Shown: positions 9,955 through 53,458 of the stretch, piece after piece
Layout of the letters: each line of letters opens with the position of its first letter
Numbering within the stretch: position 1 is the first letter of the stretch
Assembly (NCBI GenBank): GCA_944391615.1
Contig: CALXUE010000001.1
Coordinates: 134,550-198,549, forward strand
Length of the DNA stretch: 64,000 nucleotides
Direction of reading: 5' to 3'
Source of the DNA: an uncultured Alphaproteobacteria bacterium
GTDB lineage: Bacteria > Pseudomonadota > Alphaproteobacteria > RF32 > CAG-239
The notes under the pieces: generated by a model
What the model was told of the DNA's origin: nothing
Database searches by the model: none
What the model saw: the letters and a program-made list of their open reading frames with translations, nothing else
Translations under genes and position numbers: made by a program

Positions 9955-9981
9955 AAACAAAATTCTCCAAATCAAAAAAAA

Positions 9982-10548
9982 TTAAGCATCCAAAAACTGT
10001 TTATAATGTTTCAACTCTTTATAAACGGAATCAGCCATTTTTCCTTTCAAAAAAACAGCATGAACAGTATTTATTTTATCCAGTGCCTTATCCAACTCCT
10101 CCACGGTAAACAAAGTCAAAACATCCAGTTCTTGGGCAGCGGCGGCAATTTTTTGGTGACCATCATTTCCGGCATCAATTGCCTCCAAAACGAAAGCAGC
10201 CTTATGTTTAGCAAGGGCTTCTTTAACCTTATCAAAACCGGTCACAAACTGTCCGGCTTTGCGAGTCAAGTTAATCATTTCGAGACAATGTTTTTTCAAC
10301 AAAGCCTCAACCAAAGCCACCAGATTATCATCAGCACGCGCGGCACCTTTGGTAGCTTTGGCAAACAAATTTTTAGAAACAGCGGTTTGCAGCATAGATT
10401 TTGAACAAGATACATACACGCCTTTACCCGACAATTTTTTCTTAAAATCGGGAATAATAGCACCATCAACGGAGACAAACCTCAGCAAATCGTCCTGAGG
10501 CAAAACCTCTCCGGAAACAATACATTTACGTGTTACAATTTCATTCAT
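9982..10548 (-). CDS. YlxR (DUF448) / L7Ae-like RNA-binding protein of the nusA-infB operon
   Basis: Position between nusA and infB. N-terminal KCIVSGEVLPQDDLLRFV motif. Confidence 0.7.
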   Translation of the reverse strand: MNEIVTRKCIVSGEVLPQDDLLRFVSVDGAIIPDFKKKLSGKGVYVSCSKSMLQTAVSKNLFAKATKGAARADDNLVALVEALLKKHCLEMINLTRKAGQFVTGFDKVKEALAKHKAAFVLEAIDAGNDGHQKIAAAAQELDVLTLFTVEELDKALDKINTVHAVFLKGKMADSVYKELKHYKQFLDA

Positions 10549-34765: not shown

Positions 34766-36802
34766 TCAAATTCCGAGATGAAAAAGCTTATAATACTGTT
34801 CCAACGGCCCCTTATTCCAGCTAAAATCCTTTTTCATAGCATTAACTTTCATGGCCAAAATTGCTTCAGGATTCTCATAAAACACTTTCAAAACATTTTT
34901 GAGCAAATCAGCATAAGCATTAACATTGTTTTTAAGACGCCTTGCTGCCAAGTTGCTGCCATAAACCCTAGAATTGTCAACAAAAAAGACTTCACTTCTA
35001 AAACCGTCAACACCGTTAATAATAGTATCGACCAAACCGCCGGTAGACATAGCCACGGGCAAACTACCTTTAGCCAAAGCCTCCATTTGCGTCAAACCGC
35101 AAGGCTCAAACCGACACGGCATCATATAAAAATCAGCCGCCAATTGAATAGCATAAGCAAATTCGTCTTTATAACCTCTAAACACAAAGATTCGCTTACC
35201 CAGCTCAGGATTCATCGCCGTAATTTTGTCTTTAAACTTTTTCAGTTCATCAAAAATAGCTTCATCACCGGCGCCCCCCAAAACAAAAATCGGCATTTCA
35301 AGCTCGGGATGATTATTCAAAAAGTCCTCTGCAGCAAGCAAAATTGCCTCTGCGGCAATATCATAACCTTTTTGTTCAACCATACGGCTGGTAGCACAAA
35401 AAACCGGCACTTTATCGGGATTTTTAATATCTAAAGACTCAAAATAATAAAAATCAAGTAGGGGCAAAACTTCTTGCTTATATGTTTTATCTTTTGCCAA
35501 CCGATTAAGCAGTTTGATAAATTCTGCTTTATTGCAAACCTTGCCGCCAAGATTATTTTCATCATATGTTTCAAAAGAAAAATATTTGAAAAACTGATTA
35601 AGATGACTAATTTTCTGAGGGCTGGGTACAATTTTAGACTTTTCGTACCCATTCACGATTCCCAAAAAAGTTCTATGGTCTTTTCTTATTTTCAAAATAT
35701 CGCGAAAGTCTCGCCCAAATTCCAAAAACTTAGACACCTCTTCAGCATAATTTTTAGAAACGGTCACTACCCTGTCAGCAAACTGAATATGCCCGTTGGC
35801 TTGGTTATAGGTATCATAAACCAAAATAGCCGATTGTGTGCGCGGATTCGCATTTTTAACCGCTTTGGCGTTTTTATAAATCAATTCCGCACTATACTCA
35901 AACAAACTATTAAGGATTCGCTGAGTATTTGGATAATCCCACCCTTGATATCCCAAATGATGTGCAATATGCACAATAGGAATTTGCCTGATTTTTTCAG
36001 ACAAGCTGAGAGAATCAACAAAATTCTGTTCTTCTTGGGCCAAAGAGGCCATTTTCATCAACGGAGCCATAGCACCGCAGTGCCAATCATTGGCAATAAT
36101 AAGGTTTGGGCGCATAATCGGATTTTGCCTGTTCTGCAACACATCTTTCAGCAACACGCACACCGCTTTTGAAAAGAAGGCAAAACGCTCCACCTCATTA
36201 ACATTGTGAACATTCAAAACGTAGCATCCCCCTTGAGCAGAAGGATTCTCTTTGTGCGGCTGAATTGAAAAGAAATGCTCATTTTCCAACAAAACATAAG
36301 TCACACCCCAAACCTCACCCACAAACACGCCGACACGGTTTGACACCAACTTATTATGATTAATAAAGGGCACTTCAATCGTGGTAATTTTTTTCAAGAA
36401 AAGAGAAACGCCTTCGGCTCCTTTATACTCATATGTTTCAGGATTAAACAGAGCTGTTTTTTTGCCCGTATCACCAACATAAAGCGGCGTAACAATAATA
36501 ACATTATCTCCCGAAACGCCATATTCTTTGTTATAAGCTTCCGGCAGTTCGGAAGCCACAACGCCCAGTCCGCCCATTTTCATAAAAGCTGACGTTTCCG
36601 CCGACACCATCCATGCTTGGAGTTTATCAATTTCGGGCCACGGATTTTTGCCATAACACTGCACCGTGGATAAAGCCTGCATTTTAGCAGTAATTTCAGT
36701 TTTAGGTAAAAAGAAGAGAGGAGCTTTTTTAGACTTATTAAACCCGACGGGCAACATTTTTTGTTCTTCCATCGGTACGGCATTTTGCTTTAAACCTAAC
36801 AT
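34766..36802 (-). CDS. GT5-family glycogen/starch-synthase-like glycosyltransferase (678 aa)
   Basis: K-x-GGL motif KMGGLGVV; ANDWHCG and IAHHLGYQG blocks; C-terminal FEPCGLTQMEALAKGSLPVAMSTGGLVDTI. Sits between grpE and rph, and no hrcA lies between them in this window. Confidence 0.65.
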   Translation of the reverse strand: MLGLKQNAVPMEEQKMLPVGFNKSKKAPLFFLPKTEITAKMQALSTVQCYGKNPWPEIDKLQAWMVSAETSAFMKMGGLGVVASELPEAYNKEYGVSGDNVIIVTPLYVGDTGKKTALFNPETYEYKGAEGVSLFLKKITTIEVPFINHNKLVSNRVGVFVGEVWGVTYVLLENEHFFSIQPHKENPSAQGGCYVLNVHNVNEVERFAFFSKAVCVLLKDVLQNRQNPIMRPNLIIANDWHCGAMAPLMKMASLAQEEQNFVDSLSLSEKIRQIPIVHIAHHLGYQGWDYPNTQRILNSLFEYSAELIYKNAKAVKNANPRTQSAILVYDTYNQANGHIQFADRVVTVSKNYAEEVSKFLEFGRDFRDILKIRKDHRTFLGIVNGYEKSKIVPSPQKISHLNQFFKYFSFETYDENNLGGKVCNKAEFIKLLNRLAKDKTYKQEVLPLLDFYYFESLDIKNPDKVPVFCATSRMVEQKGYDIAAEAILLAAEDFLNNHPELEMPIFVLGGAGDEAIFDELKKFKDKITAMNPELGKRIFVFRGYKDEFAYAIQLAADFYMMPCRFEPCGLTQMEALAKGSLPVAMSTGGLVDTIINGVDGFRSEVFFVDNSRVYGSNLAARRLKNNVNAYADLLKNVLKVFYENPEAILAMKVNAMKKDFSWNKGPLEQYYKLFHLGI

Positions 36803-50847: not shown

Positions 50848-51972
50848 ATGCCAAGCATTTATAAGAGGGAATTTCCAATGAGCAAAAACAAATCTTCTCA
50901 GGCAGAAGAAAAAAAAGAGGAAGAAAAAACATCTACCAACGCAGCAAAATCAAAAACAAATAACCTGCACTACTCTAAAATTGTTGTACGGATATTTATG
51001 TGGTTAATATTTTTGGCCATATTACTGGGCTTATGGCTCAATCCTGAAGTAATAGAAAGCGGCCTAAACAGCTTTCAACAACAATCTCAACAGCCACAAA
51101 CACAACAACAAAGCACTATCAACGAGTCCACCCCTGACCAGTTATCTCAACAGATAGATAGCATAAAAACAGAAATACAAATTATCAAACAAAACGCACT
51201 CAACCAAAATACCGGCGAGGTTAATAAAGAAGACCTCAAAAACCTAAACGCACGCATAAATAATTTTGAAACACAAAACATAGCTTTGATAGAAAAAAAA
51301 GCCGACAAAGACAGCTTACTAGGCTTAATAAACCGCTTAGATAAAATCGAGCAACGTCTGGATAATATGGCAAAAATCTCTGACCAAGGCGCATTAATAT
51401 TATCAACCACCATGATGATAAAAGATTCGGCCTCCAGAGGAAACAGCTATGAATATGAAGCCGAAATGTTGTCGCAACTGGCGCAAAAAGAACCCCAAAT
51501 TTCAGATTCAGTCAGAACATTAGCCAATATGTCGCAACTCAAAATATCATCTTCAACAGAACTTCAAAAATCATTCAAAAAAATTTATGAAGAGGTAGAA
51601 AAAGCTGAACAAGCACGCCAAACCGAAAATAAAAATTGGAAAGAGCGCTTGAATATGAAAATCAAAGAATACATTCAAGTCAAACGCTTAAAGGAACAAG
51701 ATTCAACCCCTCAACCCATTTCTCCGGAAGAAATCCAAAAAAATATGTTGCAACAAGCACAAGAAGAAGTATCAACCAAACACTTTGACAAAGCCATCCA
51801 CACCCTAAACAATATGCCTGAGCTTTTGCAAAGATATACAGCACTTCAAAATTGGATAGGTCAAGCACAAAAAAACGTTGTGTTTAACCAAGCCATCAAT
51901 CAAATTTCAACATATTCATTGGCGTTAATGAAATTAAACTATGTTCATCCCCAAACGGCTGAACAGCAATAA
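50848..51972 (+). CDS. Membrane-anchored coiled-coil protein, possibly the alphaproteobacterial Mic60/HemX-like protein (COG4223)
   Basis: Basic N-terminus, one TM helix (IVVRIFMWLIFLAILLGLWL), Q-rich linker, long coiled coil. Lies divergent from tsaD, where, as I recall, Rhizobiales carry hemC-hemD and the COG4223 protein. Confidence 0.4.
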   Translation: MPSIYKREFPMSKNKSSQAEEKKEEEKTSTNAAKSKTNNLHYSKIVVRIFMWLIFLAILLGLWLNPEVIESGLNSFQQQSQQPQTQQQSTINESTPDQLSQQIDSIKTEIQIIKQNALNQNTGEVNKEDLKNLNARINNFETQNIALIEKKADKDSLLGLINRLDKIEQRLDNMAKISDQGALILSTTMMIKDSASRGNSYEYEAEMLSQLAQKEPQISDSVRTLANMSQLKISSSTELQKSFKKIYEEVEKAEQARQTENKNWKERLNMKIKEYIQVKRLKEQDSTPQPISPEEIQKNMLQQAQEEVSTKHFDKAIHTLNNMPELLQRYTALQNWIGQAQKNVVFNQAINQISTYSLALMKLNYVHPQTAEQQ

Positions 51973-52012
51973 TAAAGAAAAAAGAAAAAAGAAAAAAGAA
52001 AAGGTAAAGAAA

Positions 52013-53410
52013 ATGGAAAATAAACAACTAAAAACATCATGGCTCAAAAAATATGCCACAGTACCCCAATCACTTGAAAGAATGAAAGAAGTCAAATCTG
52101 TTGCCACCGCCTTCAACACCAATGTAGACGCCGTCTTAAAAATCAGCGGAAAAAAAATAGCTGAACTGGCACAAAAATTGGGCTTAGGCTTAAAAGAACT
52201 TGAAGATATCAAACATACCAAACTCGAAACACCACAAGATGTCCTAAAAGGCTTGTTCAAATGTTTCAAAAGCGGTATAGCCGAAGAATGGTTAACAGAA
52301 GACAAAACCGTCTATGACTGGATGGTCTCCAACTTAGGCTATGACAGATTACAAATGGGCGGCCAAGGAGGCATTGTAGCCAATGCTTTGGCAGTAACCG
52401 GAGCCCAAAAAGTTTATGCACATACCAATTCTCTGCCCAAGCTGCAGGCCCAACAATTTTTAGAGCTTGAAAATCTTATGTCTTTTGATGAAAACGGAGC
52501 AGAAAAACCGGCATACAAAATCAATCGAGAAGAAGATACAGCTCTTATCCACTGGATTCTGGAGTTTGATAAAGGCGATTCTGTAAATATTAACGGACAA
52601 ACATTCACCTGCCCAAAATCCAACCGTTTTATAGCCACTTATGACCCCTTAAATCTGCATCTGGTTATGGATAAACATTTTGTAAAACAAATTTCTAATC
52701 AAAAGATAGATTACATTGTCTTATCAGGCTACCACGCCTTAACCGAAAACAATTCCGGCACAAAATTAGTGGCAGAAAGCCTCCCGATAATCAAACAATG
52801 GAAAGCAAACGGAGATTTAATTCATTTAGAGATAGCCTCCACCCAAGACATTGCCGTAAGAAAAGCAATCATAAACAAAATCGCACCGGAGGTTGATTCT
52901 GTTGGTGTTAATGAAAGAGAAGCAATTGATATTTTGGAAATAACCGACCAAGAAGAGTTAGCAAAAAAATGCAATGAAGATACCCACAGTATCAATATGT
53001 TTGATGCCTTGCTTAAAATAAAGAAAACACTAAAAACCCCGCGCATACAGTTGCACATGTTTGGCTTGTATATAACCATACAGGATAAAAAATACAAAAT
53101 CACACCTGAGGCCAACTTGCGCGGTATGATGCTAGCGGCAACGGTTGCTGCCGGAAAAGCAGGCACCGGAAGCATTAATGATGCCAAAAACCTGCTTTGG
53201 GCACAAGGCAAAGAAGTTTCCGATGTTGGACTAAAAGAGCTAAAAGATTTGGCAGAACACATCAACCAACCACAAATGCTTGAAACAGGTATCGGCGAAA
53301 TTGATGGATTCGATGTCATAGCTTTGCCGACAATATTGGTAGAAAAACCGGTCACCTTAGTTGGTATGGGAGATACGATATCATCAATTTCGTTAATAGG
53401 TGCCAGATAA
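52013..53410 (+). CDS. ADP-dependent sugar kinase (ADP-glucokinase/phosphofructokinase family PF04587, ribokinase superfamily)
   Basis: N-terminal AFNTNVDAV (the family NxNxD motif), GGQGGIVANALA, NEREA, and C-terminal GMGDTISS (GxGDxxS). About 466 aa from MENKQL; the ORF-track start is 51941. Native-like GC of about 37%. Confidence 0.6.
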   Translation: MENKQLKTSWLKKYATVPQSLERMKEVKSVATAFNTNVDAVLKISGKKIAELAQKLGLGLKELEDIKHTKLETPQDVLKGLFKCFKSGIAEEWLTEDKTVYDWMVSNLGYDRLQMGGQGGIVANALAVTGAQKVYAHTNSLPKLQAQQFLELENLMSFDENGAEKPAYKINREEDTALIHWILEFDKGDSVNINGQTFTCPKSNRFIATYDPLNLHLVMDKHFVKQISNQKIDYIVLSGYHALTENNSGTKLVAESLPIIKQWKANGDLIHLEIASTQDIAVRKAIINKIAPEVDSVGVNEREAIDILEITDQEELAKKCNEDTHSINMFDALLKIKKTLKTPRIQLHMFGLYITIQDKKYKITPEANLRGMMLAATVAAGKAGTGSINDAKNLLWAQGKEVSDVGLKELKDLAEHINQPQMLETGIGEIDGFDVIALPTILVEKPVTLVGMGDTISSISLIGAR

Positions 53411-53425
53411 ACAAAAAAACAAGAA

Positions 53426-53458
53426 AAAAGCCGCTTAATATAAAGCGGCTTTAATTTT
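53426..53458. terminator. Bidirectional intrinsic terminator between convergent genes
   Basis: Perfect 9-10 bp stem aaagccgctt / aagcggcttt with loop aatat. Confidence 0.7.

Follow-up and report, generated by a model that had tools for sequence, protein, structure and literature searches.

A predicted ADP-dependent glucokinase of archaeal type in an uncultured alphaproteobacterium

A 64,000-nucleotide stretch of a contig from an uncultured alphaproteobacterium of gut type (the window) carries, on the forward strand at 52013..53410, an intact gene for a sugar kinase of the ADP-dependent glucokinase/phosphofructokinase (ADP-GK/ADP-PFK) family, and the residues at its specificity positions narrow the predicted function from glucokinase or phosphofructokinase to glucokinase. 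ADP-dependent sugar kinases are textbook enzymes of the modified glycolysis of Archaea. Judging from alignment to characterized enzymes and a predicted structure, the gene product is probably an ADP-dependent glucokinase (EC 2.7.1.147 type) that is cytoplasmic, has two domains, and belongs to the PF04587 branch of the ribokinase superfamily.

The gene and its family

The open reading frame begins with ATG, ends with TAA, and encodes 465 amino acids. The initial annotation had the coordinates right and gave 466 residues, having counted the stop codon. An alternative in-frame ATG at 51941 would yield a protein of 489 residues. Because 114 of the 120 homologues used to assess conservation (63–100% identity) are 463–467 residues long, and the loci that were inspected begin at the equivalent of 52013, this position was taken as the start. 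The GC content of the gene is 39.8% (GC3 37.8%) in a window of 40.7%; the composition is native, as had been claimed, with a measured value above the ∼37% first quoted. The reading frame, the Pfam and PDB matches, and the AlphaFold (AF2) model identify a real, intact coding sequence.

The product had been read as an ADP-GK/ADP-PFK family kinase, with a search against the Pfam profile PF04587 (ADP-specific PFK/GK) proposed as a check. That search gave a full-length match, covering positions 2–429 of the 430 in the profile, at 261.4 bits (cut-off 27; E = 1.6e-77). The matches in a sequence search of the PDB were all ADP-GK/PFK enzymes (E = 1.7e-59 to 5e-36). The AF2 model (pLDDT 91, pTM 0.87) has a large Rossmann-like α/β/α domain and a small lid and is superposable on solved members of the family; Foldseek gave TM scores of 0.78–0.86 to 18 archaeal and ancestral ADP-GK/PFK structures, among them 6c8z, 1ua4, 5o0i, 4b8r, 1u2x, and 5od2. 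Together with the invariant motifs and full-length relatives described below, these results support a PF04587 kinase, not a PfkB enzyme, in an alphaproteobacterium. The host assignment agrees with the named relatives, which are alphaproteobacterial metagenome-assembled genomes (MAGs), Ca. Scatocola faecigallinarum among them. NCBI already names the orthologues "ADP-dependent glucokinase/phosphofructokinase," and family membership in itself is clear and unsurprising. The family is sparse, as the initial annotation held: with E ≤ 1e-3 as the limit, a set of 1.84 billion representatives yields only 661 matching clusters (50% identity).

A Shine-Dalgarno-like AAGG (52001..52004, forward strand), presumed from the sequence to function as such, lies 8 nt 5′ of the ATG, and purine-rich sequences of the same kind occupy the matching place in relative loci L001 and L002. 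The 40-nt spacer between the kinase gene and the gene upstream contains an A-rich tract, as noted earlier; its real extent is 51974..52002 (forward strand) rather than 51975–52012, and it consists of 4.1 copies of the heptamer AAAGAAA (Tandem Repeats Finder, 100% matches). Copy number varies among the conspecific contigs L004–L007, which encode an identical protein, and the tract is absent in L001–L003. On the 3′ side, a consensus scan found a hairpin with a 10-bp stem and T-runs on both strands (53427..53452) where the kinase and aroK genes converge. It is kept in L004–L007, and a different hairpin stands at that place in L001. The hairpin is likely a bidirectional terminator serving both genes.

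The upstream gene (50848..51972, forward strand) encodes a conserved protein of 374 amino acids that, like three of its orthologues, matched no Pfam or NCBIfam family even at E values up to 5. Its orthologue stands directly 5′ of the kinase gene in L001, L003, L013, and L004–L007, within 2–3 nt of it in L003 and L013, and one gene farther upstream in L002. The two genes are probably co-transcribed.

Residues that determine sugar specificity

Residue roles were mapped by alignment to experimentally defined residues of PfGK and of AncMsPFK (6C8Z/6XIO), a reconstructed ancestor of the Methanosarcinales ADP-PFK/GK that acts as a PFK and, promiscuously, as a GK. The four motifs quoted in the initial annotation all lie where expected: AFNTNVDAV, GGQGG (residues 116–120), NERE (300–303), and GMGD (451–454). 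All of the features that follow are on the forward strand. The NxNxD sugar-binding motif, N35/N37/D39 (52115..52129), corresponds to N32/N34/D36 of AncMsPFK and N30/N32/D34 of PfGK, and the glycine-rich sugar-binding loop, G116/G117/Q118 (52358..52372), to AncMsPFK G114/G115/Q116. Two motifs are assigned to Mg-ADP: HxE, H271-L-E273 (52823..52831; E273 is E282 of the AncMsPFK HXE), and NxxE, N300-E-R-E303 (52910..52921; D310/E313 in AncMsPFK, N292/E295 in PfGK). R205, the arginine for the ADP β-phosphate (AncMsPFK R206, PfGK R197), opens the segment 52625..52645, and the catalytic base D454 closes the GxGD motif G451-M-G-D454 (53363..53374; AncMsPFK D471, PfGK D440). Each of these residues is invariant in the 120 homologues.

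The same alignment places the specificity determinants. E92 (52286..52288; AncMsPFK E90, PfGK E88) is the glucose-binding glutamate of GK and bifunctional enzymes and is invariant in the 120 homologues. L178-I179-H180 (52544..52552), aligned with K179/N181 of AncMsPFK and C174/H176 of PfGK, has the GK-type histidine without the lysine that binds fructose-6-phosphate (F6P). D211, at the end of the segment that begins with R205, is the GK-type aspartate (PfGK D203) in place of the PFK arginine (AncMsPFK R212) and is likewise invariant. Positions 92/178/180/211 thus read E/L/H/D here, E/C/H/D in PfGK and PhGK, and E/K/N/R in AncMsPFK. H180 is present in 119 of the 120 homologues, the remaining one having a gap at both 178 and 180; position 178 is Leu or Met. 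These columns divide 119 full-length representatives of the family cleanly into a GK type and a PFK type, and the GK-type signature is found in all 12 members of the clade to which the window protein belongs.

Mutagenesis of AncMsPFK gives these positions their meaning: K179A raised the Km for F6P ∼1000-fold, and N181A and R212A ∼200-fold (PMC7948494). Conservation of the K179/N181/R212 triad is limited to PFK and bifunctional enzymes (TlGK has His at the N181 position), and that of the glutamate at the E90 position to GK and bifunctional enzymes (PMC7948494). Since E92, H180, and D211 are of the GK type, position 178 is not Lys, and the K/N/R triad is absent, the protein is predicted to be a specific ADP-dependent glucokinase.

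None of the curated equivalog models was reached. TIGR02045 (ADP-PFK) was the top NCBIfam match by a hair (217.2 bits against a cut-off of 408.1), with the archaeal ADP-GK models NF010642 (215.8 against 387) and NF010641 (210.9 against 554) close behind. Scores of 211–217 bits against GK and PFK cut-offs of 387–554 indicate that the protein, a GK by its signature, lies outside the curated archaeal equivalog groups and has no equivalog among characterized enzymes. This distance, together with an identity of ∼30% to characterized ADP-GKs, leaves a minor chance that the enzyme is an ADP-dependent family kinase acting on another sugar (mannose, glucosamine, 1,5-anhydroglucitol, or another hexose) or using another nucleoside diphosphate donor. 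Archaeal members of the family are reported to take donors such as CDP, and ADPGK to phosphorylate 1,5-anhydroglucitol (PMC12965863), which fits such a reading. So does the replacement of PfGK Q235 by His, though His stands there in P. horikoshii GK too. Against it, every other glucose-contacting residue in the alignment is conserved, and the genes beside members of the subfamily and its nearest kin point to glucose or glucose-6-phosphate. A myxococcotal clade member lies 4 nt 3′ of a GH31 α-glucosidase gene on the same strand, another member is <3 kb from PGM and PGI genes, and P0135, the closest sequence outside the clade (35%–36% identity), lies between a glycogen synthase gene and a GH57 gene.

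A bifunctional ADP-PFK/GK or a specific ADP-PFK, as in Methanosarcinales and Methanococcales, would instead replace ATP-PFK in glycolysis; we regard this as quite improbable. It draws on the rank of AncMsPFK as the highest-scoring solved relative by both sequence and fold (E = 1.7e-59, TM 0.83, with nucleotide-binding and catalytic residues in common), on the narrow lead of TIGR02045, and on the generic name that NCBI gives the orthologues. All three determinants for the F6P phosphate are nevertheless missing (Leu, His, and Asp replace K179, N181, and R212, respectively), the triad is absent throughout the 120 homologues and the 12-cluster clade, and single alanine substitutions within it cost 200- to 1000-fold in F6P Km. 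The lead of TIGR02045 is itself at 217 bits against a cut-off of 408. Moreover, 6c8z is also the best match of P0145, an unrelated member of a different subfamily, and its top rank is therefore attributed to the consensus-like character of a reconstructed ancestor. A PFK or bifunctional function read from the 6c8z match was accordingly ruled out by the residue mapping.

Relatives and inheritance of the gene

The predicted glucokinase can be set beside the Thermococcales ADP-GKs (P. furiosus 1UA4, P. horikoshii 1L2L/5O0I, and T. litoralis 1GC5/4B8S). It shares with them PF04587, the two-domain fold (TM 0.78–0.86), the catalytic GxGD aspartate, NxxE, HxE, the ADP-binding arginine, and the Glu/His/Asp set of PfGK E88/H176/D203. 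It differs in its low identity (∼30%) and sub-cut-off NCBIfam scores, in a host that is a bacterium and presumably mesophilic, and in forming a separate clade, recovered in 183 of 200 neighbor-joining (NJ) bootstraps. That clade comprises 12 representative clusters, and its named members (Alphaproteobacteria, Myxococcota, and Opitutales) are all bacterial. The NJ tree, which is crude, did not resolve its sister group. The nearest identifiable sequences outside it are archaeal and of the GK type; one is named Heimdallarchaeota, and one lies on a contig with an archaeal/eukaryotic-type ribosomal protein gene. P0137 (Heimdallarchaeota MBN1327952.1) and P0135 are 33%–36% identical to the window protein and share the NNE-x-H-D signature, whereas these Asgard/archaeal proteins are longer (494–503 amino acids), stand in an archaeal context, and fall in separate NJ clades.

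The gene had initially been labeled archaeal/eukaryotic-type, and the archaeal half of that label holds. Mouse ADPGK (5CCF) shares PF04587 and the general fold (TM 0.67) but is distant, matching at E = 8e-12 over a partial stretch with 20% identity. A published phylogeny places eukaryotic ADPGK as sister to Asgard archaea (PMC11976288), so the alphaproteobacterial gene is not a candidate for a mitochondrial-ancestor source. Given this placement and the weak mouse match, a link of this gene to eukaryotic ADPGK or to mitochondrial ancestry was rejected.

An ordinary ATP-dependent kinase of the PfkB/ribokinase type with coincidental ADP-GK motifs is effectively refuted: such kinases share the superfamily core and the C-terminal GxGD anion hole, and PfkB (PF00294) gives a weak partial match (E = 0.098), but at 12.4 bits this is below its gathering threshold of 25.8 and far from the 261 bits for PF04587, the TM score to ATP-dependent adenosine kinase, ribokinase, and PfkB (the next matches outside the family) is ≤0.41 rather than 0.78–0.86, and the length and domain layout fit ADP-GK, PfkB-type enzymes being ∼150 amino acids shorter with another lid. 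The initial annotation had named a best match to PfkB, or truncation in relatives, as grounds for abandoning its reading; PfkB is not the best profile, and the homologues are full length.

The history of the gene was read from closely and distantly related genomes. Four conspecific contigs differ from the window by 2–4 nucleotides each in the kinase gene, all at third codon positions and all synonymous. In the indexed assembly collection, 96 blocks contain this identical protein, and the same genes flank it in many independent assemblies. The order nth-tsaD-x-ADPGK is kept in relatives whose kinases are 69%, 56%, and 44% identical, and divergence of the kinase parallels that of the neighboring Nth, TsaD, and XerD. 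The gene is judged native because its GC content matches the window, strain differences are only synonymous, and synteny is kept down to 44% identity. We think it likely that it is a vertically inherited chromosomal gene under purifying selection in a low-GC clade of uncultured Alphaproteobacteria related to Ca. Scatocola. A mainly archaeal family and archaeal nearest identifiable sequences outside the clade might suggest recent horizontal acquisition or an archaeal assembly chimera, and decay to a pseudogene was also considered, but native GC, constant flanks in independent assemblies, conserved synteny with parallel divergence, synonymous-only variation, and full-length reading frames here and in 114 of 120 homologues refute all three. 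Any inter-domain transfer must be old, and a putative ancient one is likely.

Within the window, no carbohydrate-metabolism genes neighbor the kinase gene, and a tRNA scan of the window found none, hence no integration-site signal. The initial annotation had tentatively linked the kinase to a GT5 synthase and a β-phosphoglucomutase-like HAD hydrolase in a shared glucose-phosphate and α-glucan route. Both genes exist, on the reverse strand at 34766-36802 (GT5-like, ∼15 kb away) and 62621-63367 (HAD, ∼9 kb away). The GT5-like protein is under the GlgA cut-off, and the HAD protein is a generic HAD-IA member (83 bits against a β-PGM family cut-off of 153), which does not bear out the β-phosphoglucomutase label. 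Unrelated housekeeping genes lie between, and the proposed route has no positional support; with these distances and sub-cut-off scores, an operon or pathway link among the three genes was rejected.

Proposed reaction and significance

By homology with the solved archaeal enzymes, glucose would be held in the cleft that separates the large Rossmann-like domain from its small lid, with contacts from N35, N37, D39, E92, G116–Q118, H180, and H241. Mg-ADP would sit on the large domain through H271xE273, N300xxE303, R205, and H348. D454 of GxGD is predicted to act as catalytic base, activating the 6-OH of glucose for attack on the β-phosphate of ADP, and the expected products are glucose-6-phosphate and AMP. 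No phosphofructokinase activity would be expected, as the Lys/Asn/Arg triad for the phosphate of fructose-6-phosphate is absent. The choice of ADP over ATP as phosphoryl donor is inferred from family membership only; glucose is the presumed substrate, and the physiological role would be the entry step of glucose into glucose-6-phosphate metabolism. The GH31, PGM/PGI, and glycogen-gene neighbors seen in relatives offer indirect support for the predicted glucose phosphorylation. We know of no assay of any enzyme from this bacterial subfamily, and literature searches for a characterized bacterial PF04587 enzyme and for the metabolism of RF32/CAG-239 gut Alphaproteobacteria returned nothing relevant.

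A recent review of glycolysis places ADP-GK solely under Archaea (PMC12965863). This gene and its relatives reveal a distinct subfamily, under purifying selection and including named bacteria among its members, that has become fixed across an entire lineage of uncultured Alphaproteobacteria. The glucokinase prediction is sharper than the generic "glucokinase/phosphofructokinase" label carried by public annotation and MAG metabolic reconstructions. Understanding of the enzyme family is otherwise unchanged, and the gene has no bearing on the origin of eukaryotic ADPGK. More tentatively, and with the odds against it in our view, an old ADP-GK of archaeal derivation may have become a vertical core gene and the cell's sole glucose kinase in place of Glk, ROK, and PTS. 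Glycolysis or glucan synthesis in these bacteria would then begin with ADP rather than ATP, and characterization of the enzyme would be the first for a bacterial ADP-GK, presumably a mesophilic one.

Family and fold of the kinase

The open reading frame at 52013–53410 (+) starts with ATG, ends with TAA, and encodes 465 amino acids. An alternative in-frame start at 51941 would overlap the upstream gene and is not supported, as 114 of 120 homologues are 463–467 residues long; the relatives inspected also start at the equivalent of 52013. The initial annotation had assigned this frame to the ADP-dependent sugar kinases rather than to PfkB, citing four motifs, all of which were found (N35-T-N-V-D39, G116-G-Q-G-G120, N300-E-R-E303, and G451-M-G-D454). 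The Pfam search that it proposed returned a full-length match to PF04587 (ADP_PFK_GK; profile positions 2–429 of 430, 261 bits, E = 1.6e-77), whereas the PfkB profile gave only 12.4 bits (E = 0.098). All significant sequence matches in the PDB were ADP-dependent glucokinases (GK) or phosphofructokinases (PFK): AncMsPFK, the reconstructed ancestor of the Methanosarcinales ADP-PFK/GK (6c8z/6xio, E = 1.7e-59), P. furiosus GK (PfGK; 1ua4, 6e-50), P. horikoshii GK (PhGK; 1l2l, 7e-47), 1u2x (2e-37), and mouse ADPGK (5ccf, only 8e-12).

An AlphaFold2 model built from 37 homologues has a mean pLDDT of 91 and a pTM of 0.87. In Foldseek, its TM scores to every solved archaeal and ancestral member of the family were 0.78–0.86, whereas the best ribokinase-superfamily structures outside the family (adenosine kinases, ribokinases, and PfkB) reached at most 0.41. 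These Pfam, PDB, and fold results dispose of the possibility that the motifs are coincidental in an ATP-dependent ribokinase. The possibility of a pseudogene is excluded by the uniform length of the homologues and by strain differences that are synonymous only. Membership of the ADP-dependent PF04587 family is as good as certain and, by homology, the phosphoryl donor is very probably ADP.

Residues governing substrate choice

Residues were mapped using HMMER alignments and a MAFFT alignment that combined 119 full-length representatives of the family with AncMsPFK, PfGK, and PhGK; numbering and roles follow the AncMsPFK–F6P structure paper (PMC7948494). The sugar-binding residues N35/N37/D39 and G116/G117/Q118 correspond to AncMsPFK N32/N34/D36 and G114/G115/Q116, R205 (ADP β-phosphate) to R206, E273 (HxE motif) to E282, N300/E303 (NxxE motif) to D310/E313, H348 (ribose contact) to H360, and the catalytic base D454 to D471. 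At the four discriminating positions, the window protein has E92, L178, H180, and D211, where AncMsPFK has E90, K179, N181, and R212 and PfGK has E88, C174, H176, and D203. Conservation of AncMsPFK K179, N181, and R212 is limited to PFK and bifunctional enzymes; the Km for F6P rises about 1000-fold in K179A and about 200-fold in N181A and R212A, and at the N181 position the specific T. litoralis GK carries His (PMC7948494). Together, these observations give the window protein a complete GK signature and no ligand for the F6P phosphate. The signature is invariant across 120 homologues of 63–100% identity (L or M at 178) and is present in all 12 representative clusters of the protein's clade; the family as a whole splits cleanly at these columns into GK-type (non-K, H, D) and PFK-type (K, N, mostly R) sequences. 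The top PDB rank of AncMsPFK does not speak for a PFK function: P0145, a member of an unrelated subfamily, also matches 6c8z best, as expected of a consensus-like reconstructed ancestor. We regard glucose as the probable main substrate, without PFK activity.

The family alignment also contained a third signature class, with H-(V/T/N)-D instead of NxNxD, Q/H/R replacing the glucose Glu, T replacing Q118, and N replacing D211/R212. Its members (P0145, P0154, P0155, P0166, P0170, P0175, P0178, P0181, P0183, P0209, P0234, P0245, and P0250) form their own clade in a neighbor-joining (NJ) tree, and their best PDB matches are archaeal, so this class is not the eukaryotic ADPGK type.

Placement and inheritance

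A set of 1.84 billion 50%-identity representatives, searched exhaustively with phmmer, yielded only 661 clusters of the PF04587 family (E ≤ 1e-3). Scores dropped sharply from 11 full-length clusters at 43–62% identity (337–655 bits) to the remainder at ≤36% and ≤238 bits. In the NJ tree, these 11 clusters and P0140 form one clade (bootstrap 183/200), whose named members, covering part of the 12 clusters, are Alphaproteobacteria MAGs, a Myxococcota bacterium (MBP7125981.1), and an Opitutales bacterium (MGF1451899.1). The nearest sequences outside, which are not an established sister group, are both GK-type: P0137 (a Heimdallarchaeota protein) and P0135, which shares its contig with a gene for a ribosomal protein of archaeal/eukaryotic type (Pfam Ribosomal_S27). 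An Asgard-named GK-type cluster, P0171, is more distant (29% identity). Published phylogeny places eukaryotic ADPGK as sister to Asgard archaea (PMC11976288). The enzyme had been described as archaeal/eukaryotic-type; the archaeal half of that description agrees with these neighbors, but the very weak likeness to mouse ADPGK shows that the protein is not of the eukaryotic type. A further homologue cluster, P0029 (594 aa, on a 5.7-kb contig), joins PF04587 to a response-regulator receiver domain (PF00072), either as a real fusion or as a gene-calling artefact.

The window has the gene content of an ordinary chromosomal region (infB, nusA, nrdAB, an AddAB-like pair, ftsK, fabD/fabG, lptFG-lptD-surA-rsmA, nth-tsaD, aroK, xerD, secB-Tim44, mltA, and rho), and the GC content of the kinase gene (39.8%; GC3 37.8%) is close to that of the window (40.7%). 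In the assembly collection, the identical protein has index entries in 96 blocks. Four conspecific contigs encoding it were inspected; all have the same flanking genes, and their kinase genes differ from the window at 2–4 nucleotides, all synonymous third codon positions. The order nth-tsaD-(gene of about 340–370 aa without a family)-ADPGK is kept in Ca. Scatocola faecigallinarum (69% identity; one extra gene inserted between the family-less gene and the kinase), a Pseudomonadota MAG (56%), and GCA_045643605.1 (44%), and kinase divergence runs parallel to that of Nth, TsaD, and XerD. The gene is thus vertically inherited in this lineage, and any inter-domain transfer is ancient.

The upstream gene (50848–51972, +) encodes 374 residues, the middle of which is Q-rich and of low complexity, and matched no Pfam or NCBIfam family. 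All alphaproteobacterial relatives examined, the most divergent of which has 44% kinase identity, carry an orthologue between tsaD and the kinase gene; in two of them it abuts the kinase gene (L003 and L013; 2–3 nt gap). Mic60/HemX-like genes of alphaproteobacteria presumably have a comparable location, close to tsaD and hemC.

The kinase 5′ spacer carries 4.1 perfect copies of AAAGAAA (51974–52002), followed by a Shine–Dalgarno (SD)-like AAGG 8 nt before the ATG. Copy number differs among conspecific assemblies with identical protein (L004–L007, about 9968–10000): spacer lengths are 40 nt (window), 33 nt (L004, L006, and L007), and 24 nt (L005). Since the SD and the ATG stay equally far apart, it is not obvious that expression would change; more distant relatives lack the tract. 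A second homopolymer length polymorphism lies directly 3′ of the stop (53413–53419; A7 in the window, A8/A9 in L004–L007). Between the kinase gene and that for shikimate kinase, which converges on it, lies a hairpin with a 10-bp stem and T-runs on both strands (53427–53452). The top sigma-70-like match nearby (51785–51813, +; TTGACA-17-AACAAT, 10/12) is located inside the upstream gene, at its 3′ end, some 200 nt ahead of the kinase start codon; promoter-like matches in the region were no more numerous than in shuffled sequence.

Sugar metabolism and proposed role

None of the genes adjoining the kinase in the window is sugar-related. A route shared with a GT5 synthase and a HAD hydrolase had been suggested, but about 15 kb and 9 kb, with unrelated genes in between, separate them from the kinase, and their position lends the proposal no support. 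The former (34766–36802, −) is a 678-aa glycogen/starch-synthase-like protein (GT5 plus GT1) that exceeds the GlgA it resembles by about 200 aa and scores 204 bits on TIGR02095 (cut-off 328); the scanned window ORFs contained no other glycogen gene. The hydrolase (62621–63367, −), initially called β-phosphoglucomutase-like, is only a generic HAD-IA protein in NCBIfam (83 bits against 153 for the β-PGM family; 59 against 189 for bPGM).

Sugar-related neighbors do occur in relatives. The Myxococcota orthologue (46% identity; L008–L010, 5588–9437) starts 4 nt after a GH31 α-glucosidase gene on the same strand, an apparent alpha-glucoside-to-glucose-6-P operon, and another clade member has phosphoglucomutase and glucose-6-phosphate isomerase within 3 kb. 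Outside the clade, the gene for P0135, the closest sequence and of archaeal GK type, sits between a eukaryote-type glycogen synthase gene (PF05693) and a GH57 gene (L016, 6014–10784); this locus is a compact glycogen cluster. These neighbors are consistent with the kinase capturing free glucose as glucose-6-P. In the proposed role, free glucose would enter metabolism through this enzyme, and ADP use may spare ATP when energy is limiting, adenylate kinase recycling the AMP.

The window protein shares its fold, catalytic set, and specificity signature with the Thermococcales-type specific ADP-GK, but it is no equivalog of the curated archaeal groups (211–217 bits against cut-offs of 387–554). 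It is predicted to work like the Thermococcales-type enzyme and belongs to a separate subfamily. PMC7948494 records the family in bacteria, and a 2025 glycolysis review lists ADP-GK under Archaea only (PMC12965863); no bacterial member had been characterised biochemically in the literature searched. Orthologues in NCBI already carry the name 'ADP-dependent glucokinase/phosphofructokinase [Alphaproteobacteria bacterium]'. The present analysis narrows that annotation to glucokinase and delineates a vertically inherited clade that includes named bacteria.
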